DNA of 64,000 nucleotides, taken from contig JAYSSR010000040.1 in NCBI GenBank assembly GCA_043720395.1, positions 45,639-109,638 of the forward strand. Reading direction: 5' to 3'. Each line of letters opens with the position of its first letter. Position 1 is the first letter of the stretch. Below the pieces are notes generated by a model. It was not told where the DNA came from, made no database searches, and saw nothing but the letters and a program-made list of their open reading frames with translations. Source of the DNA: Acidimicrobiia bacterium. Its GTDB lineage: Bacteria > Actinomycetota > Acidimicrobiia > Acidimicrobiales > JANYDT01. Shown one piece after another: positions 16,862-61,992 of the stretch. A program made the position numbers and the translations under genes.

Positions 16862-16884
16862 GCGCGCGGTTGGATGCCTTGCTC

Positions 16885-23868: not shown

Positions 23869-23971
23869 CGAGGGTCATGGTCCGAAATTGCGATCGCTGT
23901 TTGGCTAGGTCTCCCGCAGCGGCAAGAATAGGACCGATGTCCGCCTGCGCGCTGATCGCTCCGAGGACCTG

Positions 23972-27088: not shown

Positions 27089-28215
27089 CGACCGAAATCG
27101 CAAGCGCAGCGGAGTTCAAACAGCACATCGACACCGTTCAGGCCCGGGACGGCTACGCCAACGCGTTCGCGTTCGGCGTCGGCACCGCAGTCATGGCACC
27201 GAGCGGCAAGATCCTCGACACGAGCTACCCGGTCGTGAACCGTGAGGAGAACTACGGGTCAGCGGCCGTACTTGCGGATGTCGTCGGGCACCTTTCCGGT
27301 ACTGCCACCTATGTTCTCGACGCCGCGGGCCTTGACGGGGCAATCGCGTGCTTCGGCTGGACCGAGGGCGACGGAAAAGCGCACCACAACGTCGAGGCCT
27401 TGAAGACTGCACGCGCCGCGCTCGACGCGCCCGCTCCACTCGGTGGCGTCCGTCGAATCGTGGTCTCGTTCATCGGTTCACCCGACGATGCCCCGGTGAA
27501 CGCGTACGACGTGTACCTCCGACTCCACCTGCTCTCCCACAGGTCCACGAAGCCACACGAGGTGTCACTGGATGGTGCGTTCGGCTTGCTGAACAACGTC
27601 GTGTGGACGAGCGTCGGCCCGTTCGACCCAGATGGGTTCGATCTCGTCCGTGCCCGCCTGAGTGCCTCGGGCCACAACGTCTTGGTGCACGGCGTCGACA
27701 AGTTTCCGAAGATGGTCGACTACGTGATTCCCGGTGGCGTCCGGATTGCCGACGCAAGCCGCGTCCGACTCGGCGCGCACCTCGCCGACGGAACAACGGT
27801 CATGCACGAGGGCTTCTGCAACTTCAACGCCGGCACGCTCGGTGCATCAATGGTGGAGGGACGCATCAGCGCTGGCGTCGTCGTTGGCCACGGGTCCGAC
27901 ATTGGCGGCGGGGCATCGGTCATGGGCACGCTGTCCGGAGGCGGGAAGCAGGTCGTGAGCATCGGCGAAGGCTGTCTGCTCGGTGCGAACGCGGGCATCG
28001 GCATTTCCCTTGGCGACAACTGCATCGTCGAGGCTGGCCTCTACGTGACTGCGGGAACTCGTGTGAAGCTGCCAGACGGCACGATCGTGAAGGCCCGCGA
28101 ACTGTCCAAGGAGAGCAACCTTCTGTTCCGCCGCAACAGCCAGTCCGGGGCTGTCGAAGTGGTCGCCAACGGTGCCGTGTGGACGGGACTAAACGCGGAG
28201 CTTCATAAGAACTGA
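27085..28215 (+). CDS. dapD: 2,3,4,5-tetrahydropyridine-2,6-dicarboxylate N-succinyltransferase (actinobacterial type)
   Basis: Long collinear similarity, by recall, to mycobacterial DapD: [94 protein letters not shown]. Confidence 0.85.
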
Positions 28216-28287
28216 GCCAAGCGGTCCGCCTCCGCTCCGATGAATCGAGGCGTCGGACTCAAGCGTGACGTGATCGGAGGAACAACG

Positions 28288-29409
28288 ATGGACGACGTGT
28301 CAACGACCAGCCGCTGTGATGTCGCCGTCATCGGTGGAGGCGCAATCGGTCTGGCGACCGCGCACGTGCTCCTCGAACGTCGACCGGACCTTTCGGTGAC
28401 GCTCGTGGAACGTCGCAGCGAAATCCGAGTCAACGGCGGACGCGGCGACCGCGAGCTTGCTGGCGACACCCTGACGTCGATTGCGCCGACTTCCGGAACC
28501 GGTCGACGGGAGTTGCAGGACTTCCTTCGTAGTTTCGACGTTGCCCTCACTCCGACGGCTCATCTGATCGTGGCGACCGGACCCGACCAGCGCGCACGTC
28601 TCCGCGAGCTCTTCGACCGAGCCGCTACCGAGCTCTCGCCGGAGTGGCTTGACGGCGAGGAGTTGTCGACCCTCGAACCTGCGCTGGTTGGGTCTGCCGC
28701 TGTTCGTATTCCGGGCACGTTGCTTGCCGACGCGCGTACCGTCTCGCTCGCCCTGAGCGCTTCAGTGCTTCCGCGCGTCGATGTGCGCCTCGGGACCGAA
28801 GTGGACGGCATTGCATTCCGCCGCTCGGAAGCCGAGGTTGCAACCTCGAGCGGAACGATCGTCGCCGGTCGGGTAATCAACTGCGCGGGTCGCAACGCGC
28901 ATGCCGTGCTCAAAGCGACCGCGGGCTGCCCGCAGCTCAACGTCGCTTCGTTCCAGGAAGACATCGTCGAGCGTCGGTCCCTCGGACCGGTCGGGTCGCT
29001 GCCGTTCCACATCGTATCCACGATGCCGATCTCGCAGACGGACCGGACTGGCGGCTTCATGATGGCCCGACCTGACGGTCTGCTCTCGGTGAGGTCACAG
29101 CAAGTCCGCGTTCGCGCCGCTGGGCTGGCCCGATATGGCCGCACGGACCGTCGTACTGACGGTGACCTGCTGCTGCGGCCGGTGTTTCGTGACCTCGCCC
29201 GCATCGATCTGCGAGAGGTCAACCGCGAACGGCGAATTCGCACCGTGCTGCACAGCGTCGGGGACGCAGGCCCCTCGACCCTTCGCCACCGCTGCTCGAC
29301 GCACATCCTCGATCTCGGGGAGCGCAGCCTGTCCGCAGCGTTCCGTGCGGCCGTCGAGGCGGTCGAGGCGCTCGACGGCGACACCGTCGGCCAGCGCCTC
29401 GTCGGCTGA
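28288..29409 (+). CDS. FAD-dependent oxidoreductase (DAO-like)
   Basis: N-terminal dinucleotide fold [16 protein letters not shown]...LVER, with GGAGGA 6 nt upstream of the ATG. The rest of the protein is divergent and the substrate is unknown. Confidence 0.55.
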
Positions 29410-29464
29410 CTTACGGGTCGATTTGTCGTACCCTCGATGCGTGTCGATTTTTTCCCGCAAGCCA

Positions 29465-30091
29465 ATGGACCTGCCGAATGTGGACTCGGCACTGCCCGGC
29501 CGCGCCGACCCGATGCCGGTCGCGTCCCTCCATCATGTGCTTGGCACGTCGATCCTCCCGCCGTTCCCCGACGGTGCCCATCAACTGATCGTCGGAATGG
29601 GCTGCTTCTGGGGTGCCGAGCGGAAGTTTTGGGAAGCGCCGGGCGTGATCACGACCGCCGTCGGCTACGCAGGTGGGATCACACCGAACCCCACCTACGA
29701 GGAAGTTTGTAGCGGCCGCACGGGGCACAACGAAGTTGTCCTGGCCGTGTTCGACCCGGCCGTCACGTCGTTCGACGCGCTGATCCGAGTCTTCTGGGAA
29801 AGCCACAACCCAACGCAGGGTATGCGTCAGGGCAACGATGTCGGCACTCAATACCGCAGCGGCATCTACGTGTCCGACGCCGCGCAAAGCACATCGGCGC
29901 ACGCCTCGCGCGAGTTGTTCCAGAAGGAACTCAGCGCCGCTGGATACGGTGGAATCACGACGGAGATCGTCGATTCTCCGGTCTTTTACTACGCCGAGAC
30001 CTATCACCAGCAGTACCTCTCCAAGAACCCGAACGGGTACTGCGGCCTCGGAGGCACCGGGATCAGCTGCCCCGTCGGCCTCGCCCGCTGA
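29465..30091 (+). CDS. msrA: Peptide-methionine (S)-S-oxide reductase
   Basis: [49 protein letters not shown]. An alternative GTG start lies at 29441. Confidence 0.9.
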
Positions 30092-30156
30092 AGATCGGGT
30101 TCGGCGACCGGCGTCACGCTGACGCCTTCCGGCGAGTTCCCTGGCACGATGGGGGG

Positions 30157-31128
30157 ATGATCCACCGTCCCCGTCGTCTGCGCGTCAACGCCGCGATGCG
30201 CCGCCTTGTGGCCGAGAGCCGATTGGGCGTCGATGACGTCATCGCGCCGCTCTTCGTGCGCGAAGGCATCCACGAACCGAACCCAATTTCGTCCCTGCCG
30301 GGAGTGATGCAACACACACGCCAGTCGTTGCGCCAGGAGGTCCGCGAGCTGGCCGATCTTGGGGTGCCGGGCGTCATCGTTTTCGGCGTGCCGATGCACA
30401 AGGACGCTGAGGGCAGCGAATCGTGGAACCCGTACGGTATCGTGCAGCTCGCGTTGCAGGACCTACGCGACGACTTGGGCGACGACCTCGTGCTGATGGC
30501 CGACCTCTGTATCGATGAGTACACGAGCCACGGCCACTGCGGGGTCCTCGACGCGAAAGGTGGCGTCGACAACGACAAGACGCTTGATATCTATGCGCGC
30601 ATAGCAGTTGCACAAGCGCGCGCGGGCGCGCAGGTTGTTGCGCCGAGCGGCATGATGGACGGTCAGGTCGGAACTATCCGAGCGGCACTCGACGCGAGCG
30701 GGTTCTTCGACGTTGCAATCCTCGCGTACTCCGCGAAATACGCGACGGCGCTTTACGGCCCGTTCCGCGAAGCCGTCGATGTTCGCATTGCCGACGGGGG
30801 AGATCGCAAGGGATACCAGCAGGACTGGCACAACGCCCGTGAAGCCCTGACAGAGGTTCGCCTCGACATCGAACAGGGTGCCGACATGGTGATGGTCAAA
30901 CCCGCGATGACCTACCTGGACATCATTGCCAAGGTACGGGCCGCCGTCGAGGTGCCCCTCGCCGCCTATCACGTGAGTGGGGAGTACGCGATGATCAAGG
31001 CCGCCGCCGAACGAGGATGGGTTGACGGTCCCGCCATCGCCGTGGAACAGCTCACGGCCATAAAACGCGCTGGGGCCGACTTCATCCTCACCTATTTCGC
31101 CCGCGATTTCGCCGAGGCATCCCAATGA
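30157..31128 (+). CDS. hemB: Porphobilinogen synthase (delta-aminolevulinate dehydratase)
   Basis: MIHRPRRLR, DLCIDEYTSHGHCG, APSGMMDGQV, VKPAMTYLDI, YHVSGEYAM. Confidence 0.9.
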   Translation: MIHRPRRLRVNAAMRRLVAESRLGVDDVIAPLFVREGIHEPNPISSLPGVMQHTRQSLRQEVRELADLGVPGVIVFGVPMHKDAEGSESWNPYGIVQLALQDLRDDLGDDLVLMADLCIDEYTSHGHCGVLDAKGGVDNDKTLDIYARIAVAQARAGAQVVAPSGMMDGQVGTIRAALDASGFFDVAILAYSAKYATALYGPFREAVDVRIADGGDRKGYQQDWHNAREALTEVRLDIEQGADMVMVKPAMTYLDIIAKVRAAVEVPLAAYHVSGEYAMIKAAAERGWVDGPAIAVEQLTAIKRAGADFILTYFARDFAEASQ

Positions 31129-32420
31129 GCCACATCGCAATGCGCAAGGGTGAGATGACGAACGCGGCCCTGTTCGAGCGGGCGCAAAAGGTGCTCGTCG
31201 GCGGCGTGAACTCGCCGGTCCGTGCCTTCCGAAGCGTCGGCGGCACCCCCTACTTCGTCGAGCGAGGCGAAGGGGCGTATGTGTGGGACGTCGAGGGCAC
31301 GAAGTACATCGACCTCGTACAGTCCTACGGAGCCTCACTGGTAGGACATGCCCACCCGAAGGTCGTGGAGGCGTTGCAGGCCGCGGCCGCCCAGGGCACC
31401 ACATTCGGTGCCCCTACGCTGCGCGAGATTCGGCTCGCCGAAACGATGTGCGCTCGCGTGCCGGGCCTGGAGATGGTGCGGATGACGTCGAGCGGCACGG
31501 AAGCCACGATGAGCGCCGTTCGCCTCGCCCGCGGAATCACGGGCCGCTCGAAAGTCATCAAGTTTGCTGGCTGCTACCACGGGGCGACCGATTCGCTCCT
31601 TGCTGAGGGCGGGAGCGGTGTTGCCAATCAGGGCCTGCCGGGCTGCGATGGCGTGCCGCTCAGCGCCGTGGCAGACACGATCGTTGCGCCGTTCAACGTC
31701 GTCCCCGAGATCGGTTCCGACGTTGCGCTCGTCGCCGTCGAACCTGTCGCCGCCAACATGGGCCTCGTCGCCCCCGACGAGGGGTTTCTCCGGGGCCTTC
31801 GCGACGCCTGTGACCGTTCGGGTGCGCTTCTTCTCTTCGACGAAGTCATCACCGGCTTCCGTCTGGGCAACGGGGGAGCGACCGCATGGAGCGGCGTCCG
31901 GCCCGACCTCTGGTGCTTCGGCAAGGTCATCGGTGGCGGCGCACCAGTCGGTGCCTTCGGTGGGACCCGTGCGGCGATGCTCACTCTCGCCCCGATCGGG
32001 CCCGTGTACCAGGGGGGGACGTTATCCGGAAATCCACTCGCCACCGCTGCGGGTCTTGCCGTCCTTGACCTCGCCACCGACGATGCCTTTGCCGAGCTCA
32101 CTCGGCGCGTCGCTGACTTCGGCCGAGCGCTCGAAGGTGCCATCCGGTCCGGTGGACTTCCGGCCCAGGTCCCGGTGGTGGGAACGCTTGTAGGAGTCCA
32201 TCTCGGCCCCGGCCCGGTGCGCAACTACGACGACGCCAAACGGACCAACTCCGCCGGGCTCTACGGACCGTTCTTCCACGAGATGCTTAACCGTGGCATC
32301 GCAATGGCCCCTGGTGCCTATGAGGCACTCTTCCCGAGCTTCGCCCACTCCGACGTTGACCTTGCACGGGTTGTCGAAGCGGCGGCCGAATCGGCCGCCG
32401 CTGTCGCACGTACGCTGTGA
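31125..32420 (+). CDS. hemL: Glutamate-1-semialdehyde 2,1-aminomutase
   Basis: GGVNSPVRAF, MTSSGTEATM, LLFDEVITGFR, and the PLP-lysine context FGKVIGGG. Confidence 0.9.
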   Translation: MSHIAMRKGEMTNAALFERAQKVLVGGVNSPVRAFRSVGGTPYFVERGEGAYVWDVEGTKYIDLVQSYGASLVGHAHPKVVEALQAAAAQGTTFGAPTLREIRLAETMCARVPGLEMVRMTSSGTEATMSAVRLARGITGRSKVIKFAGCYHGATDSLLAEGGSGVANQGLPGCDGVPLSAVADTIVAPFNVVPEIGSDVALVAVEPVAANMGLVAPDEGFLRGLRDACDRSGALLLFDEVITGFRLGNGGATAWSGVRPDLWCFGKVIGGGAPVGAFGGTRAAMLTLAPIGPVYQGGTLSGNPLATAAGLAVLDLATDDAFAELTRRVADFGRALEGAIRSGGLPAQVPVVGTLVGVHLGPGPVRNYDDAKRTNSAGLYGPFFHEMLNRGIAMAPGAYEALFPSFAHSDVDLARVVEAAAESAAAVARTL

Positions 32421-33253: not shown

Positions 33254-34024
33254 CTATGGGCAGACTTGGAGTGTTTCGGGAATCTGGAACGTAGCGGCGT
33301 CGAAGGGTTCCTCCGCCGCGATGGTCGGATCCTCCCCAACCTTTGCAAGGACGTTCACGGGGAAATCTTTCGGCGTCGACTGCAAACGATTCCGCTCATA
33401 GTTGACGAGGTAGATCAGTTGTGCGTCGCTCAGTGTGGGGAAGCCCGGCATGCCGGTTTTCGCCGCGTGTTGCCCGCCCTCGCGGTTGGGGTCGCCATAA
33501 GGCTGTCCCGCACCGCAACTGCCGTGCTTCACGAATGCTGCCTGCTCGATGGGGTCGGGGAAGGTCTTCTCGGCTTCGCCGTTGTACAGCGGACGTCCGA
33601 CAAGTCCTTTGTCCGAACCCGCTCCATCGCCGCCATGACAGCTGGCACAGTTGGCGTTGTACAGGCTCTGGCCGATCGACTGTGGGGTGTCGGCACGCGC
33701 CTGCGGGGTTGACCATGTGTTGAACATGAATATCGCCCAGACCGGGAGCCCGGCCAGGAGAAAGACGGACGAGATTTTTGCGAATGCAGCACCCCGAACC
33801 TTCTCCACCCTGGGTGCTGCGGTTCGGCCGCCTGCTTTCGGCACCTTGGGGGCAGCGGCACCGGCGGCGTCCGCGGCGCTTGGATCGACCGGTGCGGCCG
33901 GCACAGATGCAACCGGGGAGGTGGTGTCGGTCGGAGTCGGGCTCGGGGCCTCGACGCCTTCACCCGATAGGGCGGCGCGACGCGCTTTGGCCCGATCAAG
34001 CAGGTGCGGGGGTACTTCAGCCAC
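33254..34024 (-). CDS. Membrane-anchored monohaem c-type cytochrome
   Basis: Single CASCH haem motif with a distal TGMPGF Met. About 80 aa of cytoplasmic Ala/Pro-rich N-terminus, then the TM helix ISSVFLLAGLPVWAIFMF. Confidence 0.75.
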   Translation of the reverse strand: MAEVPPHLLDRAKARRAALSGEGVEAPSPTPTDTTSPVASVPAAPVDPSAADAAGAAAPKVPKAGGRTAAPRVEKVRGAAFAKISSVFLLAGLPVWAIFMFNTWSTPQARADTPQSIGQSLYNANCASCHGGDGAGSDKGLVGRPLYNGEAEKTFPDPIEQAAFVKHGSCGAGQPYGDPNREGGQHAAKTGMPGFPTLSDAQLIYLVNYERNRLQSTPKDFPVNVLAKVGEDPTIAAEEPFDAATFQIPETLQVCP

Positions 34025-34319: not shown

Positions 34320-34829
34320 GTGGTTGCGTTCTTCGCCTCGTTGCTGGCACTCATCGTGTTCATTGCTCTCCCCGCCGCGTACGGCAAGCGTCGCCCTGTC
34401 GGCACGCCCGTCACGTGGGGCGAGGCCATGGCAGGCAGCCTCTATTTGTTCTTTGTGATGTTCTGGGCATACGGAGTGGTACCTCACCAGTTCCTCTCGT
34501 GGGCCGACGGTCCGCTGAAGTGGCGTGCCGATGCCTACGGCATCCCGGCGGGCAAACTTCGCGAGCTGATCGGCGAGAAGGAAAACCACTTCTACAGCTA
34601 CAAGAGCAACGCGTTCTGGCCGAGTGGGGTCACCTTTGGCGGGCGCGGTCGAGTCTTGGTCAGCAAGGAACACGTGCGGGACTTCGTCGCCGCAAACATT
34701 TACATCGTCTTTCTCGGTGTTCACATCGCGCTCTGGGGTGCCTGGCAGAAGCGTGGCAAGAAGGCCTCTGCGAAGGCCGCCCTGGCACCGACATCGACCT
34801 ATGGGCGTCCGCTCGTGAAGAAGGCCTGA
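34320..34829 (+). CDS. Membrane protein of unknown function, first gene of the bc-type cluster
   Basis: 169 aa with 3-4 hydrophobic segments (FFASLLALIVFIALPAA, SLYLFFVMFWAYGVV, ANIYIVFLGVHIALWGAW). It ends 7 nt before the ferredoxin gene. Confidence 0.5.
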   Translation: MVAFFASLLALIVFIALPAAYGKRRPVGTPVTWGEAMAGSLYLFFVMFWAYGVVPHQFLSWADGPLKWRADAYGIPAGKLRELIGEKENHFYSYKSNAFWPSGVTFGGRGRVLVSKEHVRDFVAANIYIVFLGVHIALWGAWQKRGKKASAKAALAPTSTYGRPLVKKA

Positions 34830-34836: not shown

Positions 34837-35250
34837 ATGGCCAAGACCGATGCCAACCCACCGATGCCCTATTTCCCGGGCGGCTATACGCTCGCGGAAA
34901 TCACCGTGGATGACCTCAACAAGAGCGTCAAGCCCAAGCAGTTCCTGCATATCGATCAGTCCGAATGCATTATGTGCGAGGGCTGCGTGGACATCTGCCC
35001 GTGGAAGTGCATCCATATGCTCTCCGCTGGCACCGTCGAGGACTCGGTCAACGTCGTTGCGCCGGGAACTGATCCCGACGATCACGTCGTCTTCGTCGTG
35101 GACGAGGACGTCTGCACGCGTTGCGGTCTCTGTGTGGACCGGTGTCCGACCGGCGTCATCATCATGGGCAAGGCGGGCGTGGCCCCTCGCGATGGCGACC
35201 AGCACATGCGCGACAACAAGCACGGCTATTCCTACGGGATGCGGTTCTAG
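34837..35250 (+). CDS. 2x[4Fe-4S] ferredoxin-domain protein
   Basis: CIMCEGCVDICP and CTRCGLCVDRCP cluster motifs; 137 aa. Confidence 0.8.
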   Translation: MAKTDANPPMPYFPGGYTLAEITVDDLNKSVKPKQFLHIDQSECIMCEGCVDICPWKCIHMLSAGTVEDSVNVVAPGTDPDDHVVFVVDEDVCTRCGLCVDRCPTGVIIMGKAGVAPRDGDQHMRDNKHGYSYGMRF

Positions 35251-35416: not shown

Positions 35417-36190
35417 ATGGCAACACCGATGAAGCCAGGCATCGGCGACAAGGTCGCTGAACGGGTGGACAAGGTCCAGGGCAGTCAAGCCTGGAACTCG
35501 ATCTTCCGACCAGGATCGATCTTTCGCAAGGGTTACAGCGACTCGCCGCGTAACCGCAGCTACGTCATCATGAACTCGCTGCTCTATCACCTTCACCCCG
35601 TGAAAGTGAAGCGCCACGCGGTCAAGGTCAGCTATACACTGTGCCTTGGCGGGCTCTCGTTCTTCCTGTTCATCGTGCTGACCGTCACGGGCATCTTCTT
35701 AATGTTCTTCTACCGGCCCACCGAGGCGGCAGCGTGGACCGATATCAAAACGCTGCACACCGCCGTGACATTCGGGCTCCTCGTGCGAAACATGCATCGG
35801 TGGGGTGCGCACCTCATGGTGCTCTCCGTTTTCTTGCACATGGCCCGCGTCTTCTACCACGGTGCCTACAAGGCACCGCGCGAGTTCAACTGGGTTATTG
35901 GCGTCATCCTCCTCATGCTGACGCTGCTGCTTTCGTTCACCGGCTACCTCCTCCCCTGGGATCAGTTGGCACTCTGGGCGGTAACGGTCGGAACGAACAT
36001 GATCGGCTACACCCCCGTGTTCGGCCCGCAGTCGCGATTCGTCTTGCTGTCAGGTGTTGAGATCGGCACGGACACGCTCTTGCGATGGTATGTGTTGCAT
36101 GTGTTGCTGTTTCCCTTCGTCATTGTCATCTTCATGGCGATTCACTTCTGGCGTGTCCGCAAGGACGGCGGTATCTCCGGTCCTCTGTGA
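35417..36190 (+). CDS. Cytochrome b, N-terminal (b6-type) subunit of a split cytochrome b
   Basis: Four haem-ligand His (NMHRWGAHLMVLSVFLHMARVF and LRWYVLHVLLFPFVIVIFMAIHF), a CLGG motif at res 76-79, and AAGGAG 8 nt upstream of the ATG. Confidence 0.85.
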   Translation: MATPMKPGIGDKVAERVDKVQGSQAWNSIFRPGSIFRKGYSDSPRNRSYVIMNSLLYHLHPVKVKRHAVKVSYTLCLGGLSFFLFIVLTVTGIFLMFFYRPTEAAAWTDIKTLHTAVTFGLLVRNMHRWGAHLMVLSVFLHMARVFYHGAYKAPREFNWVIGVILLMLTLLLSFTGYLLPWDQLALWAVTVGTNMIGYTPVFGPQSRFVLLSGVEIGTDTLLRWYVLHVLLFPFVIVIFMAIHFWRVRKDGGISGPL

Positions 36191-36225: not shown

Positions 36226-37065
36226 GTGGCAGACGTCCCAGAGCACCTGTTGAAACGGGCCGAAGAGGCCAAGGCTCGCGCCGCTGCGAAGAAGGCGGCT
36301 GCGGCTGGAGAGGCCGTGCCCATGCCAGTTGTCGCGGCGCCCGACTCCGGTGATGCGGCTAGCTATGCGGAGGCGGAACAAACCGGCAAGATTCCTGCGC
36401 ACCTGCTCGCCCGGAGCGCGGCTGCGAAGGCGGCCAAGGCCTCGGGCGGGGGCGAGGCCCCATCGGCGGGTGGTGGCGGGGTCGCGGTACTCGACAAACC
36501 GACGGGTGGGGCAACCGCCGCTGCCGCAGCGATGGCGACCCCAGCGTCGGCTGGTCTTGTGGGGCCGGCTGGCCACAACCAGCGGCTGCTTACCGTCGTC
36601 AAAGCCGGTTCGATTCAGGACGTGAAGGCAACGCCCACCGACAAGGTGAGCACGTGGCCCCACCTCCTCGTCGGTGAGTTCGTCGCTTCGCTCGCCTGCT
36701 TGACCGTCTTGATGATCATGTCGGTGTTCATCAACGCCCCATTGCTCAAATTGGCGAACTACAACCAGACGCCGAACCCTTCGAAAGCGCCGTGGTACTT
36801 CCTGGGTCTCCAGGAATTGCTCACGATGTTTCACCCCATGGTGGCCGGTGTCACCATTCCCGGCATGGGTCTGTTCATCCTGATTCTCGCGCCTTACGTC
36901 GACAAGAATCCGTCCAACAAGCCAGAAGACCGCAAGGTGGCGATCTCGCTGTTCTCGATCTTCATGATGTTTTGGGCGGTCCTCGTCATCATCGGATCAT
37001 TCTTCCGAGGACCTGGCTTTATTTTCATCTTTCCCTGGCAAAAGGGCATCTTCTTCGAGCTCTGA
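36226..37065 (+). CDS. Cytochrome b C-terminal (subunit IV-like) protein with a long Ala-rich N-terminal extension
   Basis: TM core with a Qo-loop-like NPSKAPWYFLGLQELL, preceded by about 140 aa of low-complexity Ala/Gly/Pro sequence. Confidence 0.8.
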   Translation: MADVPEHLLKRAEEAKARAAAKKAAAAGEAVPMPVVAAPDSGDAASYAEAEQTGKIPAHLLARSAAAKAAKASGGGEAPSAGGGGVAVLDKPTGGATAAAAAMATPASAGLVGPAGHNQRLLTVVKAGSIQDVKATPTDKVSTWPHLLVGEFVASLACLTVLMIMSVFINAPLLKLANYNQTPNPSKAPWYFLGLQELLTMFHPMVAGVTIPGMGLFILILAPYVDKNPSNKPEDRKVAISLFSIFMMFWAVLVIIGSFFRGPGFIFIFPWQKGIFFEL

Positions 37066-37115: not shown

Positions 37116-37988
37116 ATGAGCACTGGCACCACACTCCTCATCGCCATCATCGTTGTCGTCGTCCTGGCAGTGCTGTTCTTGGCCGTCACGGCTCGGAGCA
37201 GCGACCGTAACGCCGCGACCGGACTCCTTGCGCGGGAGACAGAACGGCGCGACCGTCAGCGCCGTCATCGCGCCGCGGTCGGCGACAACGAGGCACCTGC
37301 GGCATCAGGTCGCACGCTGGAGCGTTCCGTGGCGTTGGCGCAACGTGGTGGGAGTGCGGTCGCTGTCGTCGAAGCGGCGAGCGTGCCCGACATTCTCCGT
37401 CCACCAATGGATGCCGACCAACTAGGCGTTGTCAGGCGTCAGTTCATGAACCGCAGCATTATCGTCCTGTTCTTGGTGAGCCTCGGCGGCTTCGGTGCGT
37501 CTCTCTTGGCGTTTCTCTGGCCAAGCCAGACGGGTGGTTTCGGCGCGACCGTCAAAGTCGGCAAGCTCGATGACATCCTCGCCGACATCAAGACGAAGGA
37601 GGAGCCGTTCTACGTCGCAGAGGCCCGCACCTACCTCGTCCCGTATCCGAAGGAAGCGCTCGCGAAGGGCAAAGCCAGCTACGGCGAGACGGTGTACAAG
37701 GGCATGGAGCAGGGCGTGGTTGCCCTCTACCAGAAGTGTGTGCACCTGGGTTGCAAGGTGCCGTGGTGCAAGAGTTCGCAATGGTTCGAGTGCCCGTGTC
37801 ACGGTTCGCAGTACAACCGCGTCGGTGAGAAGAAGGCCGGCCCGGCACCGCGCGGACTTGATCGATTTGCCGTCAGCGTGGATGGCGGAATCGTGAGCGT
37901 CAACTCGGGTGCCCGTACCAACGGTCCCGCAATTGGCGTCAACACCACCGGGCAAGAGGCCGAAGGCCCCCACTGCGTCTCCGAATGA
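37116..37988 (+). CDS. Rieske [2Fe-2S] iron-sulfur subunit
   Basis: CVHLGC...CPCHGSQY Rieske boxes and two TM helices. The start is placed at MSTGTTLLIAIIVVVV inside the 398-aa ORF. Confidence 0.85.
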   Translation: MSTGTTLLIAIIVVVVLAVLFLAVTARSSDRNAATGLLARETERRDRQRRHRAAVGDNEAPAASGRTLERSVALAQRGGSAVAVVEAASVPDILRPPMDADQLGVVRRQFMNRSIIVLFLVSLGGFGASLLAFLWPSQTGGFGATVKVGKLDDILADIKTKEEPFYVAEARTYLVPYPKEALAKGKASYGETVYKGMEQGVVALYQKCVHLGCKVPWCKSSQWFECPCHGSQYNRVGEKKAGPAPRGLDRFAVSVDGGIVSVNSGARTNGPAIGVNTTGQEAEGPHCVSE

Positions 37989-39310
37989 TGGCTGCTGAGG
38001 AGAACATGAACGTCATTGACACTGTGAACGTGCTCGCGGCGACGCCGCAGAAGGCCGTCGGACTGACCATCCTGGTGGTCGCTCTGCTGGCCTGGGTGCT
38101 GTACCTCATTACCGAGAATCGGCGTACGCCGAAGTCGAACATCGAGAGCTTTCTCGGAGCGCCCAACCGGAAAGTGCCGCCGGAAGACGACGAGTTCGAA
38201 GGGCCCCGCCTCGATCGATTCCTCGGCTGGGCCCTCATCGGCATCGCAATCATGGCCGTGTCACTGCCCGCCTATTTCTTGGCTGAACCGGGGCGTGAAG
38301 TGGGCGCGATTCGGGGCTTCGACAAGCGAAGCGTCCATCGCGGCGAGGAGTCGTTCGGCGCCGAGCACAACGGATTCAACTGTGCGAAGTGTCACGGCGC
38401 AGACGGCGGCGGCGGCGTCACGTCCTGGTCCGTTGCGCAGTACAACGCCGATGGAACTCCCAAGATCGACCCTTCAACGAAGAAGCAGGAACTGAAGCAG
38501 GTCACTTGGTTAGCACCGAGAGTCAACGACGTTGCCCTTCGCTATCGGAGGGAACAGATCCGCAACGTCCTGATCTATGGGCGCGGCACCAACAAGCCAA
38601 TGCCCGCGTGGGGGATCAAGGGAGGCGGACCGGCCAACGAACAGCAGATCGATGACCTCGTGAATTACCTCCGCTTTGCTGCATTGGAACAGGACGAAGA
38701 AGCGGTAAAGGTGTACAACGCTGAATGGAACAGCAACGGTCATAGCGCGGACAAGGCGTTCGACAAGGCGTTCGAGGCAGCCGCCGAGAGAGCCCAGAAG
38801 GAATCAACCGACGCTCTCGCGAAGATCAAGACGGACTCCGCAAAAGCGGTGCAGGCAGCGTCCAACCCAACGGGACCGCTCCTGACCGCCACGAAGGGTC
38901 TCGCCGATGCCAAGACTGCGAACGATCCAGGTTTGATCGCAGCCGCCGAAGCCAAACTTGCTGAGGCAACCCGAAACCTCGACAACGCGAAAAAGGTGCT
39001 CGCCGCGTCGGATGGTGAGCTCCTGTTCAACTCGAACTGCGCTCGCTGTCACACGAATGGCTACAGCTACGGAGAGCCCAACGGATCCGGCGGCGGCTTC
39101 TACGGTCCGCGGCTCTCCGAGTCCAGCCTGACCCAGCAGTTCCCCGAGAAAGTCACTCAGATCGAATACATCAAGAACGGTGTGGAGGACTCGAAAGCCT
39201 ACGGTACCGGTGGCGTCAACCATTGGTCCGGCGGCGGAATGCCCTACTTCGGGACCATCCTCACGGATGAACAGATCGAAAAGATCGTCGACTACGAGCG
39301 GAGGCTGTGA
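37985..39310 (+). CDS. Dihaem c-type cytochrome, N-terminally anchored
   Basis: CAKCH and CARCH motifs, and an N-terminal TM helix LTILVVALLAWVLYLI. Its start overlaps the Rieske stop. Confidence 0.8.
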   Translation: MMAAEENMNVIDTVNVLAATPQKAVGLTILVVALLAWVLYLITENRRTPKSNIESFLGAPNRKVPPEDDEFEGPRLDRFLGWALIGIAIMAVSLPAYFLAEPGREVGAIRGFDKRSVHRGEESFGAEHNGFNCAKCHGADGGGGVTSWSVAQYNADGTPKIDPSTKKQELKQVTWLAPRVNDVALRYRREQIRNVLIYGRGTNKPMPAWGIKGGGPANEQQIDDLVNYLRFAALEQDEEAVKVYNAEWNSNGHSADKAFDKAFEAAAERAQKESTDALAKIKTDSAKAVQAASNPTGPLLTATKGLADAKTANDPGLIAAAEAKLAEATRNLDNAKKVLAASDGELLFNSNCARCHTNGYSYGEPNGSGGGFYGPRLSESSLTQQFPEKVTQIEYIKNGVEDSKAYGTGGVNHWSGGGMPYFGTILTDEQIEKIVDYERRL

Positions 39311-40182
39311 TGTCGGCCGTGCTGTCCACGCTCGTCAACGACGGTGGGGTCGTGGCGAACCTCCGATGGAATCCGACGTTTCGAGGCATTCTCTTTCCCA
39401 CCATCCAGTTCTTGGTGCTCTGTGGGAGTTGCTACCTCATTCTTGCTACGAATATTGGCAACCGTCTCGGTTTTCTGGTGGCGTCGGCCGCGTTTTGGGG
39501 ATGGATGGTCCTGATGACCCTGGTCTGGATGATTTACGGCATCGGACTGCTCGGCTTCGCTCCGAAATGGGTTGTGCAGGAGGCAATCACCGACAGCAAG
39601 ACTGCGCAGGTCGAGGTTGTCACGCGAATACCGAACGAGGCGACCACCATTGTGCCGAAGGGCTGGAAGGCCGTCGCCGACGGTGCGCCCGCGCGTGGCG
39701 AGGCTCAATCAGCGATCGATGCACGGCTCGTACCCGAGGGTCAGACGGCCACCTACGTGCCGATTTCCGGGTACGAGATCGGTGGCGAGCAGCGTCTGAA
39801 GGTGTGGCCGAAGATCGAGCCTGGTGGCAAGTGGTACAACCCGGCGGACTATGCGTTCCGCGGCCTCCTGCACTCGAAGCACTACTACGTCGGTCAGGTC
39901 CAACCAATGTTGTTGGAAGACGTCACCGTGAATGGTGTCGTGCAGTACGACGACAAAGGCAAAGCCAAGCAGACGGCGGTCAAGAAAGACGGGAAGGAAG
40001 TGCCCGATACTGCAAAACCCGTCACGACCGTTGTCTTGATTCGCGATCTCGGCTCGCGTCGTCAGCCGCCTTTCGTTATCTTTCTCTGTTCGCTCGTCCT
40101 GCTCAGCCTGTCGCTTTTCAACCTTCATCGACGCGACAAGCAAGTCATGGCTGCCATGTCACAGTTCGCGAAAGCAGCCTGA
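39307..40182 (+). CDS. Membrane protein of unknown function, last gene of the bc-type cluster
   Basis: 291 aa: three N-terminal TM helices, a soluble middle domain of about 150 aa, and a C-terminal TM helix (PFVIFLCSLVLLSLSLF). GTGA overlap with the cytochrome c stop, and it ends 6 nt before nuoA. Confidence 0.5.
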   Translation: MMSAVLSTLVNDGGVVANLRWNPTFRGILFPTIQFLVLCGSCYLILATNIGNRLGFLVASAAFWGWMVLMTLVWMIYGIGLLGFAPKWVVQEAITDSKTAQVEVVTRIPNEATTIVPKGWKAVADGAPARGEAQSAIDARLVPEGQTATYVPISGYEIGGEQRLKVWPKIEPGGKWYNPADYAFRGLLHSKHYYVGQVQPMLLEDVTVNGVVQYDDKGKAKQTAVKKDGKEVPDTAKPVTTVVLIRDLGSRRQPPFVIFLCSLVLLSLSLFNLHRRDKQVMAAMSQFAKAA

Positions 40183-40188: not shown

Positions 40189-40668
40189 ATGGCCGATTAC
40201 CTCCCGATCGTTCTGCTACTGATCGTTTCGACGCTCTTCGTTTTCGGTTCTTTCGTCGCAAGCGCCGTGCTTGGGCCGACGCGTCAGGAAACGGCAGCCA
40301 AGATCGGGCCGTACGAATGCGGGATCGTTCCAGACAAAGAGACGGCGGAGCGGTTCCCCGTCCGCTTCTATCTCGTCGCGATGATCTTCATCATCTTCGA
40401 TATCGAGATCATTTTCCTGTACCCGTGGGCTGTCCTGTTCGGGAGGCTCGGCACGTTCGGTCTGGTTGAGATGGTCATCTTCTCGATTGCCGTTCTGGTG
40501 TCGTTCGTGTATCTCATTTCCAACGGCGCGCTCGACTGGGGCCCGATTGCGCGACTTCGTGAACTCGAAGGGTCCGTAGCACTCCGGGTCCCCGATGAAC
40601 TTCGGACGTCGGCATCGTCGATTCGGCGAATCCCGAAGCCTCCACGTGAACCACAGGAAGCGGCCTGA
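40189..40668 (+). CDS. nuoA: NADH-quinone oxidoreductase subunit A (copy 1, with a C-terminal extension)
   Basis: PYECGIVP...[27 protein letters not shown]. Confidence 0.9.
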
Positions 40669-40669
40669 C

Positions 40670-41218
40670 ATGGGCCTCGAGGATCTCAACCACAACTTCG
40701 TCACGGGCACAGTCGAATCGCTTGTGAAGTGGAGTCGCCAAAACAGTGTGTGGCCGGCGTCGTTCGGACTTGCCTGCTGCGCCATCGAGATGATGGCGAC
40801 CGGTGCTTCGCGGTTCGATCTCGCCCGTTTCGGCATGGAAGTCTTCCGCGCCTCTCCGCGCCAAGCCGATCTCATGATCGTTGCCGGACGCGTCTCCCAG
40901 AAGATGGCACCGGTACTTCGTCAGGTCTACGACCAGATGATGGAACCGAAATGGGTGATCTCGATGGGTGTTTGCGCGTCTTCCGGCGGGATGTTCAACA
41001 ACTACGCCATCGTTCAGGGAGTGGACCAGATTGTTCCGGTCGACGTGTACGCGCCAGGTTGCCCACCTGGACCGGAGACGCTGATCTACTCAATCCTCAC
41101 GCTGCACGAGAAGATCAAGACCGGCGAGATCACGAAGAGGCGTCAAGACAGCGGTGCCGGTGCCGGGATCATGCTGGACGCACCTCCGCCCACCATCGCG
41201 ATTGGTCGGCCCAAGTGA
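40670..41218 (+). CDS. nuoB: NADH-quinone oxidoreductase subunit B (copy 1, actinobacterial type)
   Basis: [60 protein letters not shown]. Confidence 0.9.
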
Positions 41219-41255
41219 TATTGCACCAACTCCAAACCGCCGGCTGGTAGCGAAC

Positions 41256-41786
41256 ATGAGCGACCAGACCACTGCCGGAAGCACCGACGAAACGTCTGCG
41301 GCGCCCGATCCCGAGACTCTTCACGGCGCGCCCATCACGTACAGCCGCGGCCAGAAGACAGCGCACGCTTCCACCTCCGGGTACATCAAGCTCGTCACGG
41401 AACTCAAGGAGACCGGGTTCAACATGTGTGTCGATCTCACTGCGGTCGACTACCTGATGACTACCGATCGGGACCTCCCGGCAGGCACGGTCGGTGAACG
41501 ATTCGAGATCGTTGCCAACCTTCTGTCTCACTCGAATCGCCAGCGGATTCGCGTCCGCGCGCAGGTTCCAGAGTCTTCGGCGTCAATTTCATCGCTCTAC
41601 GATCTCTACCCGGGAACCGAGGCAATGGAGCGCGAGGTCTACGACCTGCTCGGTGTGACCTTCGACGGCCATCCAGACCTGACCCGAATTCTTCTGCCCG
41701 ACGAATGGGAGGGTCATCCCCTCCGCAAGGATGACCCGATGGGTCGCATTCCCGTGCAGTTCAAGTCCGCACCCCAGGCGAGATGA
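41256..41786 (+). CDS. nuoC: NADH-quinone oxidoreductase subunit C
   Basis: ERFEIVANLLS, YPGTEAMEREVYDLLGVTFDGHPDLTRILLPDEWEGHPLRKD. Confidence 0.9.
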   Translation: MSDQTTAGSTDETSAAPDPETLHGAPITYSRGQKTAHASTSGYIKLVTELKETGFNMCVDLTAVDYLMTTDRDLPAGTVGERFEIVANLLSHSNRQRIRVRAQVPESSASISSLYDLYPGTEAMEREVYDLLGVTFDGHPDLTRILLPDEWEGHPLRKDDPMGRIPVQFKSAPQAR

Positions 41787-43105
41787 GTCGGTTCGACATG
41801 AACACCAGCCAGGAAATGCAGGACCGGACCGACACGTCAGCCAAGGAAATCGAACGCGAGGAGGGCGCAGTATTGCGCGGTGTGTCGGACTCCGACGCCG
41901 CTGTCTACAGCGCCGAGGATTACAACATCGAACTCGGCGACGACGAGACGATGATCATCAATATGGGCCCTCAGCACCCAAGCACGCACGGCGTCCTGCG
42001 CGTGATGATGGAACTCCGCGGCGAACAGGTACTCCGCACCAAGCCAGTGATCGGCTATCTCCATACCGGCATGGAAAAGACGGCTGAGAATCTCACCTTC
42101 CTGCAGGGTGGCACCAACGTCACCCGAATGGACTATCTGAGTCCGCTGTTCAATGAGTTGGCGTTCTCGATGGCGACCGAGCAATTGCTGGATATCGAGA
42201 TTCCGGACCGTGCAACGTGGATCCGCATGCTCATGTGCGAGCTCAACCGGATGGCAAGTCACCTTCTGTTCATGGCCACCAACGGCATGGACCTCGGCGC
42301 CGTCGGCATGATGATCTACGGATGGCGCGAACGCGAACTCGTGCTCAGCTTCTTCGAGCGCACGACCGGTCTTCGGATGAATCACAACTACATCCGCCCC
42401 GGCGGGGTTGCAGCGGATCTTCCACCCGGCTGGCAGGCGGAAGTGCTCTCGCTCTGCGCAGAGATCGAGCCCCGCCTTGATGAGTACGACACGCTGCTGA
42501 CCGGGCAGCCGATCTTCCTCAATCGAACTCAGGGCGTCGGCGTCATCTCGGCCGATGAAGCGATTGCGCTCGCCGCTACCGGTCCAATCCTTCGTTCGAC
42601 CGGCGTCGAGTGGGATCTCCGGCGGCACATGCCGTACCTCGCCTATGACAAGGTCGACTTCGACGTGATCGTGGGCACACATGGTGACGCGTTCGACCGT
42701 TACGCGATCCGCCTGCATGAGATCCGTGAATCGATCCGCATCGTCCGCCAGGTCGTTGACATGATGCCCATGGGTGACTACCGGACGCAGAACAAGAAGG
42801 TAACCCCGCCGCCGCGCGGCCGCATCGATGAGTCGATGGAAGCGCTCATCCACCATTTCAAACTCTTCACCGACGGCTTCAAGGTTCCCGCTGGGGAGGT
42901 CTACGCGCCCGTAGAGTCGCCCCGCGGCGAACTCGGCTGCTACATGGTCAGCGATGGTGGGACCAAGCCGTACCGGATGCACATGCGTGGTCCGAGCTTC
43001 GTGAACCTGCAATCGATGCCCACCATGATGAAGGGTGCGATGGTCGCCGACGCAATCGCGATCATCTCCTCGATCGACCCCGTCCTCGGTGAGGTCGACC
43101 GGTAG
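41783..43105 (+). CDS. nuoD: NADH-quinone oxidoreductase subunit D
   Basis: NMGPQHPSTHGVLR, GYLHTGMEK, ESPRGELG, and a C-terminal DPVLGEVDR. Confidence 0.9.
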   Translation: MSRFDMNTSQEMQDRTDTSAKEIEREEGAVLRGVSDSDAAVYSAEDYNIELGDDETMIINMGPQHPSTHGVLRVMMELRGEQVLRTKPVIGYLHTGMEKTAENLTFLQGGTNVTRMDYLSPLFNELAFSMATEQLLDIEIPDRATWIRMLMCELNRMASHLLFMATNGMDLGAVGMMIYGWRERELVLSFFERTTGLRMNHNYIRPGGVAADLPPGWQAEVLSLCAEIEPRLDEYDTLLTGQPIFLNRTQGVGVISADEAIALAATGPILRSTGVEWDLRRHMPYLAYDKVDFDVIVGTHGDAFDRYAIRLHEIRESIRIVRQVVDMMPMGDYRTQNKKVTPPPRGRIDESMEALIHHFKLFTDGFKVPAGEVYAPVESPRGELGCYMVSDGGTKPYRMHMRGPSFVNLQSMPTMMKGAMVADAIAIISSIDPVLGEVDR

Positions 43106-43133
43106 GTCGAACAGTAAAGAGATACGTACGCAT

Positions 43134-43697
43134 ATGGCCCGCTTCACTCCCGCAAATCTCGAACGCGCCCGCGAGCTCGTGGGTCATTACCCGCGTCCGA
43201 AAAGCGCCACGATCCCGCTCTGCCATCTCGCGCAGGAGCAGGACGGTTACCTCAGCGATGCCGCAATGGAGCAGATCGCCGAGCTCGCAGGGTGCACGCC
43301 CGCCGAGGTCTACGGCACGGCGAGCTTTTACGAGATGTTCAAGTTTCACGAGGTAGGCAAATACCTGATCGGCGTCTGCACGAACATCTCCTGCATGCTG
43401 CTCGGAGGCGAGGAATTGCTTGATCACGCAGCCGACTCGCTCGGCGTCCGACCTGGCGCAACAACGTCCGACGGGCTGTTCACGCTTGAGGAGATGGAGT
43501 GCCTCGCTGCGTGCACCGAGGCACCCTGCCTGCAGGTCAACTACCGCTACCACCACAAGGTCACCAGCGCAGACTTTGACGGCCTCGTCGCTGACCTGCG
43601 ACTCGGTAAGCGTTCCGAGATCCCGCTGCATGGGACGCTCTCCAAAGTCCGACAGTCCATCCCGGCCGACCGCCGCGCCAGCCACGACAGCATCTGA
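43134..43697 (+). CDS. nuoE: NADH-quinone oxidoreductase subunit E
   Basis: [2Fe-2S] Cys pattern CTNISCML...ECLAACTEAP. Confidence 0.9.
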   Translation: MARFTPANLERARELVGHYPRPKSATIPLCHLAQEQDGYLSDAAMEQIAELAGCTPAEVYGTASFYEMFKFHEVGKYLIGVCTNISCMLLGGEELLDHAADSLGVRPGATTSDGLFTLEEMECLAACTEAPCLQVNYRYHHKVTSADFDGLVADLRLGKRSEIPLHGTLSKVRQSIPADRRASHDSI

Positions 43698-43708
43698 GGA
43701 ACTAGCTC

Positions 43709-45016: not shown

Positions 45017-45042
45017 TCCCGCCTGACTTCTCCGGAACCACC

Positions 45043-48914: not shown

Positions 48915-48968
48915 GATGATCATTTCGAGTCGAGTGCAGCGAGTCCGTTGCCCCCAGCGGGAGCTGTG

Positions 48969-50535: not shown

Positions 50536-50540
50536 CCTGA

Positions 50541-61067: not shown

Positions 61068-61084
61068 AACGAGGAAGGGACGAC

Positions 61085-61972: not shown

Positions 61973-61992
61973 GGTACCCGTAGCTTGGTGCG

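Follow-up and report, generated by a model that had tools for sequence, protein, structure and literature searches.

The DNA analysed here, a window of 64,000 nucleotides, contains an operon flanked by hem genes and nuo genes in which a cytochrome b6-type gene is accompanied by genes for a ferredoxin, a subunit IV homologue, a Rieske protein, a dihaem cytochrome c and two conserved membrane proteins. The remaining annotated open reading frames of the window are unrelated genes. Relatives of the cytochrome b6 were found in at least 586 species genomes, and counts given out of 80 loci refer to the best 80 of these, nearly all of which are Acidimicrobiia. The features of the locus are as follows.

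33254–34024, minus strand: divergent monohaem cytochrome c, 256 aa, haem motif CASCH; 42 of 80 loci
34320–34829, plus strand: conserved membrane protein with no family match, 169 aa, first gene of the unit; 73 of 80 loci
34837–35250, plus strand: 2x[4Fe-4S] ferredoxin, 137 aa, Pfam Fer4, two CxxCxxCxxxCP motifs, directly upstream of the b6 gene
35417–36190, plus strand: cytochrome b6-type subunit, 257 aa, 29.2 kDa, four transmembrane (TM) helices, C-terminus RKDGGISGPL
35588–35599, plus strand: HxHP motif (H58-L-H60-P) in a clade-specific N-terminal n-side extension of the cytochrome b6
35642–35653, plus strand: CxGG motif (C76-L-G-G), Cys76 being the positional equivalent of b6 Cys35, the thioether residue of haem ci/cn
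36158–36163, plus strand: R248-K249, by alignment equivalent to b6 Arg207-Lys208, adjoining the ci/Qi pocket
36226–37065, plus strand: subunit IV homologue, 279 aa, Pfam PF00032
36655–36681, plus strand: W-P-H-L-L-V-G-E151-F152, candidate haem ci-facing motif by alignment to Firmicute QcrC
36787–36798, plus strand: A-P-W-Y motif of the Qo site, which defines the "APWY clade"; 75 of 75 loci
37116–37988, plus strand: Rieske [2Fe-2S] protein, 290 aa, cluster boxes CVHLGC and CPCHGSQY (S-Y signature)
37985–39310, plus strand: membrane-anchored dihaem cytochrome c, 441 aa, CAKCH and CARCH
39307–40182, plus strand: conserved membrane protein with no family match, 291 aa, last gene before nuoB; 70 of 80 loci

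Cytochrome b is split at this locus, as the b6-type protein ends at GISGPL and is followed by a separate PF00032 gene. The b6 reading frame matches Pfam PF00033 (Cytochrome_B, E = 3.5e-45) and has the haem b ligand pairs of a b6-type protein, H127/H141 in helix B with 13 residues between them and H228/H243 in helix D with 14. The first-pass annotation had pointed to a CLGG motif immediately before the first TM helix, and both observations stand. The motif reads TGC CTT GGC GGG within VSYTLCLGGLSFF, with the cysteine codon TGC at 35642-35644, and since helix A begins at residue 77 in the AlphaFold2 model, which was computed without cofactors, Cys76 would cap this helix.

The same annotation placed the cysteine at the ci-binding position, which the comparison with known b6 proteins confirmed. 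By position, Cys76 is homologous to b6 Cys35, with which it coincides in ungapped phmmer alignments to five solved b6f complexes. Residues 71-257 align to residues 30-215 of the spinach, Chlamydomonas, Nostoc and Mastigocladus proteins (E ~1e-45), gap-free before the motif, while the match to Synechocystis b6 spans 37-222, so the equivalent cysteine there is residue 42. Foldseek searches with the model returned b6 chains as the top matches (target-normalised TM-score 0.78-0.84), and the structure-based alignment gives 37-39% identity to b6.

The cysteine is retained in 80 of 80 related species-level loci (79 LCLGG, 1 LCFGG) and is encoded by TGC in 64 and TGT in 16 of them. Retention together with synonymous variation points to purifying selection on the residue. 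C.GG was found in 119 of 120 clusters at 90% identity. In the wider family, 120 informative representatives at 50% identity have Cys in this column in 50 cases and other residues in 70, and the second Gly is present in 47/50 Cys-bearing but only 23/70 Cys-less representatives (Fisher p = 2e-12, for representatives that are phylogenetically non-independent). Given the retention of the cysteine, the codon variation, the cluster frequency and the co-occurrence with Gly, CxGG is not a chance motif. Cys-bearing relatives also terminate at GISGPL, i.e., their cytochrome b is split. As a marker specific for ci, GISGPL was discarded because RKDGG[IL]S.P is also seen in long, Cys-less relatives. The full CxGG motif and a split cytochrome b are the pattern described in the literature for haem ci (Baymann 2012; Dibrova 2017).

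A conserved cysteine might nevertheless be kept for structure, lipid contact or redox sensing. The protein would then have two haems and no ci, resembling b6 but with a Qi site in the style of bc1. We consider this unlikely. It gains some plausibility from the 70 of 120 representatives that function without the cysteine, and from the residue preceding it, which is Leu75 here. The verified ci carriers have Tyr at this position, conserved as YCLGG or YCFGG in all experimentally verified cases (Kao & Hunte 2014; PMC4122944). However, Tyr is not universal, since Desulfitobacterium has FCFGG according to the same survey, and it is a correlate and no proven requirement. The invariance of Cys over 80 species despite codon changes, and its tight association with the second Gly and the split, also argue against such a reading.

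The operon furthermore contains no CCB-type (system IV) maturation factor, a second point in favour of a cysteine retained for another reason. CCB families gave no Pfam match among nine proteins, comprising the unit and its upstream neighbours, and a CCB-like identity of the two conserved membrane proteins was rejected, as neither had a Pfam match even at E <= 10. This search is a weak test because descriptions of CCB1 and CCB2/4 are limited to oxygenic phototrophs. Firmicutes reportedly bind haem ci without CCB1/2/4.

Subunit IV likewise argues against the reading without ci. The protein consists of an Ala-rich N-terminal extension of about 140 aa followed by a PetD/QcrC-like membrane part, which from the sequence apparently has three TM helices. 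All 74 subunit IV sequences recovered from Acidimicrobiia contain WPHL[LI]xxEF, in which Glu-Phe does not vary. Without gaps, Glu151 falls on the Glu that is invariant in 118 of 118 Bacillaceae QcrC sequences (FWPNFLLKEW; hhalign probability 97.8%, E = 1e-12). The Firmicute Glu is the reported second axial ligand of the low-potential haem cN/ci, and its position is equivalent to the Phe targeted in a Phe-to-Tyr mutant of b6f (PMC12954380). The match to PetD is weak, with an hhalign probability of 32% and coverage of the C-terminal part alone. HMMER and an alignment anchored on the WP dipeptide place PetD Phe40 one residue apart, and the register is settled against Firmicute QcrC only.

The Rieske protein has an N-terminal TM segment and a second one after an RRQF Tat-like motif, and its best NCBIfam Rieske matches are PetC models. 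The dihaem cytochrome c presumably accepts electrons from the Rieske protein. The divergently encoded monohaem cytochrome c and subunit IV have an N-terminal VPxHLLxRA motif in common.

Judged from these sequences and alignments, the b6 subunit likely binds haem ci at Cys76. The explanation we favour, with a probability of roughly 0.68 for the model as a whole, is that this protein serves as the b6-type cytochrome b in the Acidimicrobiia Rieske/cytochrome b complex, a menaquinol:cytochrome c oxidoreductase. Haem ci would be attached to Cys76 through a single thioether on the cytoplasmic (n) side, beside haem bH. On its open face, Glu151 of subunit IV would serve as cover or ligand, as the Glu of Firmicute b6c does, in place of the Phe found in b6f. 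Such a Glu-faced ci would have a low potential suited to menaquinone reduction at Qi in a Q cycle, while the other branch would run from the APWY-type Qo site to the Rieske protein and on to the membrane-anchored dihaem cytochrome c. The upstream ferredoxin would be a probable extra n-side subunit. On b6, haem ci would come third after bL and bH, rather than being a fourth haem per cytochrome b as was first suggested.

The similarity to b6f (PetB of 6RQF, 1Q90, 2ZT9 and 1VF5) extends to the short four-helix cytochrome b, the separate subunit IV, the 13/14 His spacing, Cys35 in CLGG (LCLGG here, YCLGG there), the Arg207-Lys208 equivalents, the GISGPL end, a TM-score of about 0.8, and a Rieske CPCHGSQY box typical of PetC. 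The complex differs from b6f in about 40 extra N-terminal residues with HxHP and in having Leu, not Tyr, before Cys. Subunit IV has APWY instead of the PEWY of PetD, a Glu at the position of PetD Phe40 (with a one-residue uncertainty in register), and the 140-aa extension. In place of cytochrome f (PetA), for which the unit has no gene, there are a dihaem cytochrome c, a ferredoxin and two membrane proteins with no family match, and the open reading frames examined include no small subunit of the PetG/L/M/N set. The host is also non-photosynthetic, and the quinone is presumed to be menaquinone.

With Firmicute b6c (Bacillus/Geobacillus QcrABC and Heliobacterium PetBD), organisms in which haem ci has been shown experimentally, the complex has in common the split into b6 and subunit IV, the CxGG motif (YCFGG in Bacillus), WPxxLLxE[WF] with its conserved Glu in subunit IV, a non-photosynthetic setting and a c-type cytochrome acceptor. 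Subunit IV is far nearer to QcrC than to PetD by the hhalign probabilities given above. Differences lie in the Qo motif (APWY here, PDWY there), in a subunit IV lacking a fused cytochrome c domain, in the additional ferredoxin gene, and in the S-Y Rieske signature as opposed to the low-potential types. The NCBIfam Bacillus-type b6 model gives 204.6 bits against a cutoff of 325.

Compared with the actinobacterial QcrCAB (bcc) of Mycobacterium and Corynebacterium (6ADQ, 7Q21), the phylum, the dihaem c acceptor, a multi-TM Rieske protein and, presumably, menaquinol are common to both. QcrB is there a fused protein of about 540 aa with a PDWY Qo motif, and it scores 80-86 bits in phmmer, while the NCBIfam model NF050120 (bc1_QcrB_actin) reaches 114.3 bits against a cutoff of 500. 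The solved actinobacterial structures are reported to show no haem ci.

The APWY Qo motif, the split cytochrome b and CxGG together place the protein in the APWY clade of Kao & Hunte 2014, with members in Geobacter (ExtO/P/Q), Kuenenia (Kuste4569-4574 and Kustd1480-1485), Planctomycetes, Chloroflexi and Ilumatobacter, the last in either the PEWY-cyt c or the APWY group. The survey lists a split cytochrome b for Ilumatobacter coccineum, assigns actinobacterial split sequences to the PEWY-cyt c or APWY clades, and notes that CxGG occurs within the APWY clade and that no APWY-type complex had been characterised (PMC4122944). This lack of a characterised member leaves some room for a cysteine kept for reasons other than ci. 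The cysteine has also been reported in Geobacter, Kuenenia, Planctomycetes, Ktedonobacter and Solibacter (Baymann 2012; Dibrova 2017), and CxGG beyond cyanobacteria and Firmicutes has been in the literature since 2012-13. The first-pass annotation regarded the motif as unexpected in an actinobacterium. Our results do not bear this out. No record matches the b6 protein exactly, but relatives that are 83-90% identical assign the window to Acidimicrobiia, and in this class, as seen among the best 80 genomes, the cytochrome b6 and its operon are the rule. The protein is the standard, catalogued form of the Acidimicrobiia respiratory bc complex, and its likely extra haem is no surprise.

Within this clade the best family match is ExtP. 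With the clade the protein has APWY and CxGG in common (mostly WCMGG there, LCLGG here), and WCMGG relatives also have HxHP and RKDGGISGPL. Kuenenia in addition has an n-side Fe-S protein, a Glu that ligates haem cN in the models, and a high Rieske potential together with menaquinone. A further reading would assign the gene, as an ExtP-type cytochrome b, to an operon for selenite/tellurite reduction or extracellular electron transfer. The match to NCBIfam NF040969 (cytb_ExtP) is marginal at 300.1 bits against a cutoff of 290, and two homologues (P0017, P0035) are labelled ExtP in their NCBI records. However, no rhodanese, porin or multihaem ExtKL/M/N/S is encoded near the gene, which lies instead among hem and nuo genes and a gene for a dihaem cytochrome c. 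Subunit IV scores 49 bits against the ExtQ cutoff of 150, and Gram-positive-type actinobacteria are the hosts of the complex. With the extHIJKLMNOPQS setting absent, gene context contradicts an Ext function, and we regard this reading as extremely improbable. The complex further departs from the APWY clade in its dihaem acceptor, compared with hexa-, octa- and deca-haem cytochromes, and in the three apparent TM helices of subunit IV, compared with five in the Kuenenia models.

The ferredoxin gene adjoins b6 in 77 of 80 loci. Homologues of the protein are 136-143 aa long with the closest ones 77-91% identical, and it has no signal peptide and no TM segment. The ferredoxin is a candidate, and probable extra, subunit on the n-side (cytoplasmic side). 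In one metagenome contig with the same operon (P0096/L081), a single reading frame joins it to the n-side N-terminus of b6. Four other apparent fusions (P0001, P0020, P0115, P0216) contain Arg/Pro-rich junk and seem to result from frameshifts in the gene calls; only P0096 is clean. A general association of ferredoxin with CxGG cytochromes was rejected, as none is encoded at an FCLGG locus (L082) or a WCMGG locus (L083).

These observations allow a further reading in which ci is present but the low-potential branch is wired to the cytoplasmic ferredoxin and does not, or does not only, reduce menaquinone. The complex would be of b6c type with a built-in Fe-S wire leading from bH and ci to a stoichiometric ferredoxin subunit, perhaps via an inter-monomer haem b ligated by His58. 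Either quinol oxidation would be bifurcated to generate a low-potential reductant, as proposed for anammox complexes, or a low-potential donor would feed the Qi site, similar to the debated route from ferredoxin to ci in b6f. In addition to the near-constant adjacency and length of the ferredoxin and the clean fusion, the Rieske S-Y signature predicts a potential > +260 mV, although a prediction from two residues is rough. Acidimicrobiia presumably use menaquinone. In the anammox paper, a high-potential Rieske protein together with menaquinone was taken to imply very low-potential b haems. The HxHP motif, which is nearly invariant in this superclade and has no alignment to cyanobacterial b6, is a candidate equivalent of the anammox His proposed to ligate the bridging haem b, as judged by the spacing of Kuenenia His43/His62 alone; the extra anammox haem is itself an AlphaFold3 prediction. 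Against a wire, the fusion is one among thousands of sequences and occurs in 0 of 80 genomes, and no ferredoxin gene adjoins b6 in the FCLGG and WCMGG relatives sampled. Neither a catalytic nor an NAD(P)-binding domain is present in the ferredoxin. Where Kuenenia has an NAD(P) oxidoreductase as n-side partner, the candidate here is a bare 137-aa protein. We therefore consider a ferredoxin wire improbable, even more so than a cysteine retained without ci, and prefer a Glu151-faced ci that serves menaquinone reduction.

The complex is class-wide in Acidimicrobiia and is encoded between the operon for haem biosynthesis and the nuo operon, so that we regard it as the probable main complex III; we assume that it is the only one in this organism. 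If ci is bound, Actinobacteria would be added to Cyanobacteria and Firmicutes as phyla whose cytochrome b has three haems, and the complex III of Acidimicrobiia would be unlike the mycobacterial bcc, the textbook and drug-target model of the phylum. Acidimicrobiia are abundant in soil, freshwater, marine and wastewater metagenomes. As ci was anticipated by earlier sequence surveys, the gain would be confirmation and not discovery, and the conserved operon is more interesting than the cysteine itself. More could be gained from the conserved ferredoxin, a probable subunit next to haem ci. If the wire were real, a high-potential Rieske protein and menaquinol would let abundant aerobic actinobacteria bifurcate quinol electrons and make low-potential reductant, or alternatively low-potential electrons would be injected at the Qi site, and the complex would offer a natural, tractable model for the long-debated route from ferredoxin to haem ci. 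Cultured Aquihabitans and Ilumatobacter could provide a direct experimental handle on the purpose of ci and on whether it exchanges electrons with n-side Fe-S proteins.

The proposed haem ci (also cn or cN) site lies in a cytochrome b6-type subunit encoded by a bc operon with the following order:

34320-34829, plus strand: 169-aa membrane protein
34837-35250, plus strand: 2x[4Fe-4S] ferredoxin of 137 aa with two CxxCxxCxxxCP motifs
35417-36190, plus strand: cytochrome b6-type subunit, 257 aa, 29.2 kDa (Pfam Cytochrome_B PF00033, E = 3.5e-45)
35588-35599, plus strand: its H58-L-H60-P motif, in a clade-specific N-terminal extension
35642-35653, plus strand: its CLGG motif with Cys76, within VSYTLCLGGLSFF (codon 76 is TGC, 35642-35644)
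from 36226: subunit IV
36655-36681, plus strand: W144...E151-F152 of subunit IV, the window copy of WPHL[LI]xxEF
37116-37988, plus strand: Rieske protein with two hydrophobic segments and the cluster box CPCHGSQY
from 37985: dihaem cytochrome c
from 39307 (to 40182), plus strand: 291-aa membrane protein
thereafter: nuoB onwards

Translation of the frame at 35417-36190 yields C-L-G-G exactly as the first-pass annotation had read it. Transmembrane helix A starts at residue 77 in the AlphaFold2 model (mean pLDDT 77.9), and Cys76 therefore caps the first helix. When all PDB sequences were searched with phmmer, the five top matches were cytochrome b6 chains of b6f complexes (spinach 6RQF, Chlamydomonas 1Q90, Nostoc 2ZT9, Mastigocladus 1VF5 and Synechocystis 7R0W; E 9e-46 to 5e-44). 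Residues 71-257 align with b6 30-215 (37-222 in Synechocystis), ungapped ahead of the CLGG motif in all five, so that Cys76 equals Cys35, which in the motif YCLGG or YCIGG of b6 is known from the literature to form the single thioether to haem ci. The earlier claim that the cysteine sits at the ci-binding position thus held against all five chains, none of which placed it elsewhere. The His ligands have b6-type spacing (H127/H141 with 13 residues between, H228/H243 with 14), R248-K249 is the equivalent of b6 Arg207-Lys208, and the C-terminus GISGPL is the same as in b6. Additionally, b6 chains are the first Foldseek matches of the model (target-normalised TM-score 0.78-0.84). As judged from sequence, Cys76 is the haem ci-position cysteine of cytochrome b6.

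The cysteine is strongly retained among close relatives. C.GG is found in 119 of the 120 best 90%-identity clusters, and 79 of 80 related species-level genome loci carry LCLGG, the remaining one LCFGG. Codon 76 is TGC in 64 of these loci and TGT in 16, i.e., the Cys is retained while the codon drifts. For the wider family we took the top 150 representatives at 50% identity; the site is covered in 120. Cys occupies it in 50 (LCLGG, FCLGG and WCMGG subclades), and Gly, Arg, Tyr or Trp in the other 70. Of the proteins with Cys, 47/50 also have the second Gly of CxGG, against 23/70 of those without (Fisher p = 2e-12, for representatives that are phylogenetically non-independent). Complete Cys-bearing relatives end at GISGPL and are split cytochromes b, whereas most Cys-less relatives are long fused ones. 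The published rule that Cys, the whole CxGG and the split co-occur is reproduced in this family.

Subunit IV carries a candidate second ligand. The loci yielded 74 Acidimicrobiia subunit IV sequences, every one with WPHL[LI]xxEF and an invariant Glu-Phe; FWPNFLLKEW stands in all 118 Bacillaceae QcrC proteins, a set fetched with a Bacillus subtilis QcrC query that is 98% identical to database entries. Profile-profile alignment of the two families (97.8% probability, E = 1e-12) sets WPHLLVGEF ungapped on WPNFLLKEW, so that Glu151 matches the Firmicute Glu. According to a 2025 anammox study that reviews the literature (PMC12954380), low-potential (about -50 mV) haem cN has a Glu as its second axial ligand, with EPR evidence from heliobacteria; the study puts this Glu where the b6f Phe-to-Tyr mutant alters Phe, and reports Glu ligating cN in its own models too. 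Cyanobacterial PetD resembles subunit IV far less (32% probability, over the C-terminal part alone), and the register against Phe40 is uncertain by one residue. The Leu directly before Cys76 is a point against haem ci; Tyr precedes the Cys in all verified carriers, although Desulfitobacterium has Phe (Kao and Hunte, 2014, PMC4122944). Collectively, the best-supported reading is a haem ci bound covalently and probably ligated by Glu, a reading to which we assign a probability of about 0.7.

The CCB maturation factors bear little on this reading. No operon protein matches the CCB1 or CCB2/4 Pfam families, the 169-aa and 291-aa membrane proteins match no CCB family even at E <= 10, and the genes annotated elsewhere in the 64-kb window are unrelated ones. 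This is weak evidence either way: the search covered 64 kb only, the literature restricts CCB1 and CCB2/4 to oxygenic phototrophs, and CCB3 is one member of YGGT, a broad family. Firmicutes are not known to use CCB1/2/4 in attaching haem ci.

The first-pass annotation had called such a cysteine unexpected in an mshA-bearing actinobacterium. An mshA-like gene is present (16870-18105, plus strand), with TIGR03449 by far its best match, but its 404.6 bits fall short of the curated 462.5, which makes it no certified equivalog. The surprise itself is unjustified, since the feature runs through Acidimicrobiia across the best 80 genomes and is covered by earlier work. [quoted passage not shown] The same authors recorded a split cytochrome b in Ilumatobacter coccineum YM16-304, confined CxGG to Firmicutes, chloroplasts/Cyanobacteria and the APWY clade, and wrote that haem ci in this clade "needs to be experimentally verified". 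The Cys was also listed for Geobacter, Kuenenia, Blastopirellula, Ktedonobacter, Pirellula, Desulfococcus and Solibacter (Baymann et al., 2012), and further CxGG subfamilies were described (Dibrova et al., 2017). In bioinformatic terms the point had thus been made before. We found no experimental work on the Acidimicrobiia complex; the literature searched touches the class only in Kao and Hunte (2014).

The top NCBIfam model is cytb_ExtP, the cytochrome b of the Geobacter ext operon (300.1 bits, cutoff 290); the Bacillus-type b6 and actinobacterial QcrB models give 204.6 (cutoff 325) and 114 bits (cutoff 500). We rejected an ExtP identity, as the cutoff is passed by only 10 bits and no other ext genes were found at the locus. 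The NCBI name "selenite/tellurite reduction operon b-type cytochrome ExtP" on two Acidimicrobiales homologues (P0017, P0035) is likely annotation over-transfer from a marginal score.

At least 586 genomes encode a relative in a scan with one genome per GTDB species, while an exact look-up of the window's own cytochrome b6 gave no record. Among the best 80 of these genomes (83-90% identity), nearly every label is Acidimicrobiales, Acidimicrobiia, Microthrixaceae or Ilumatobacteraceae; the cultured Aquihabitans sp. G128 is one of them. Copies 86-89% identical occur in MAGs labelled Verrucomicrobiota, Acidobacteria and Gammaproteobacteria (loci L006, L041, L053; two contigs short), probably through binning contamination rather than gene transfer. 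Gene order around cytochrome b6 is held in 70-77 of the 80 loci, with exceptions mostly at cut contigs. A divergently transcribed monohaem cytochrome c lies upstream of the operon, and beyond it a TetR gene, then hemL, hemB, hemD, hemC and hemA. The window covers a core bioenergetic region, with genes at 23197-32420, 40595-55710 (plus strand) and 56778-63066 (plus strand). Upstream of the operon it reads Rex-like regulator, hemA, hemC, hemD, three unrelated genes, hemB and hemL; directly downstream are nuo genes (nuoB to nuoI identified) with an antiporter-type subunit, and past these a type VII secretion EccC-like ATPase and disA. As it lies between haem-biosynthesis genes and complex I, the operon most likely encodes the main respiratory complex III of Acidimicrobiia. 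Of the two bracketing membrane proteins, which match no Pfam or NCBIfam family, the 169-aa one keeps its place in 73/80 loci and the 291-aa one in 70/80; they could be further subunits or assist assembly.

The 137-aa ferredoxin, which has neither signal peptide nor TM segment, is encoded directly upstream of cytochrome b6 in 77/80 Acidimicrobiia loci. Its 120 closest homologues are all stand-alone proteins (136-143 aa, 74-91% identity), annotated only as "ferredoxin" or "hypothetical". One metagenome contig encodes a clean in-frame ferredoxin-b6 fusion in unchanged operon context (P0096, 377 aa, locus L081 1600-2733); none of the 80 genomes does, and no ferredoxin gene was found next to the sampled FCLGG and WCMGG relatives. 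Since the b6 N-terminus is on the n-side, the fused ferredoxin would face the cytoplasm close to haem ci, and the 137-aa protein is a candidate n-side subunit.

The Rieske protein has one hydrophobic segment at its N-terminus and another roughly 100 residues further on, behind a Tat-like RRQF motif; C[PQG]CHGS.Y is its cluster box in 70/71 loci. This box is the "S-Y" signature, to which potentials above 260 mV have been assigned (ten Brink; Kao and Hunte, 2014, PMC4122944), and it is unusual for the menaquinol oxidase presumed here. Menaquinone is the quinone of Actinobacteria. For Kuenenia, where measured Rieske potentials exceed +300 mV alongside menaquinone, the authors inferred b haems of very low potential and a passage of electrons from bN/cN to Fe-S clusters on the n-side. 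The route would run through an extra haem b that AlphaFold3 predicts at the dimer interface, its ligand being His43 (Kuste4571) or His62 (Kustd1481), near Arg247 or Arg266-Lys267 (PMC12954380). HxHP, nearly invariant among both Cys-bearing and Cys-less relatives, is plausibly the equivalent of this His. Counted from His to Arg, the spacing is 190 in the window protein, against 204 in the two Kuenenia proteins and in family members with 14 more residues between the HxHP and Arg-Lys motifs. A comparable wire or bifurcation, carrying electrons from the b/c haems to n-side Fe-S clusters, seems unlikely here. Separately, [VI]P[EAP]HLLxR[AS] with an Ala/Lys/Arg-rich stretch occurs twice in the subunit IV N-terminal extension (36235-36261 and 36391-36417, plus strand) and once at the N-terminus of the divergent cytochrome c (33989-34015, minus strand); found in 77/80 related loci at 1-3 copies each, it could be a docking motif.

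The ci-position Cys in Acidimicrobiia is a class-wide, already catalogued feature and not an anomaly, and the interest of the complex is somewhat raised by its conserved ferredoxin partner and cultured hosts.
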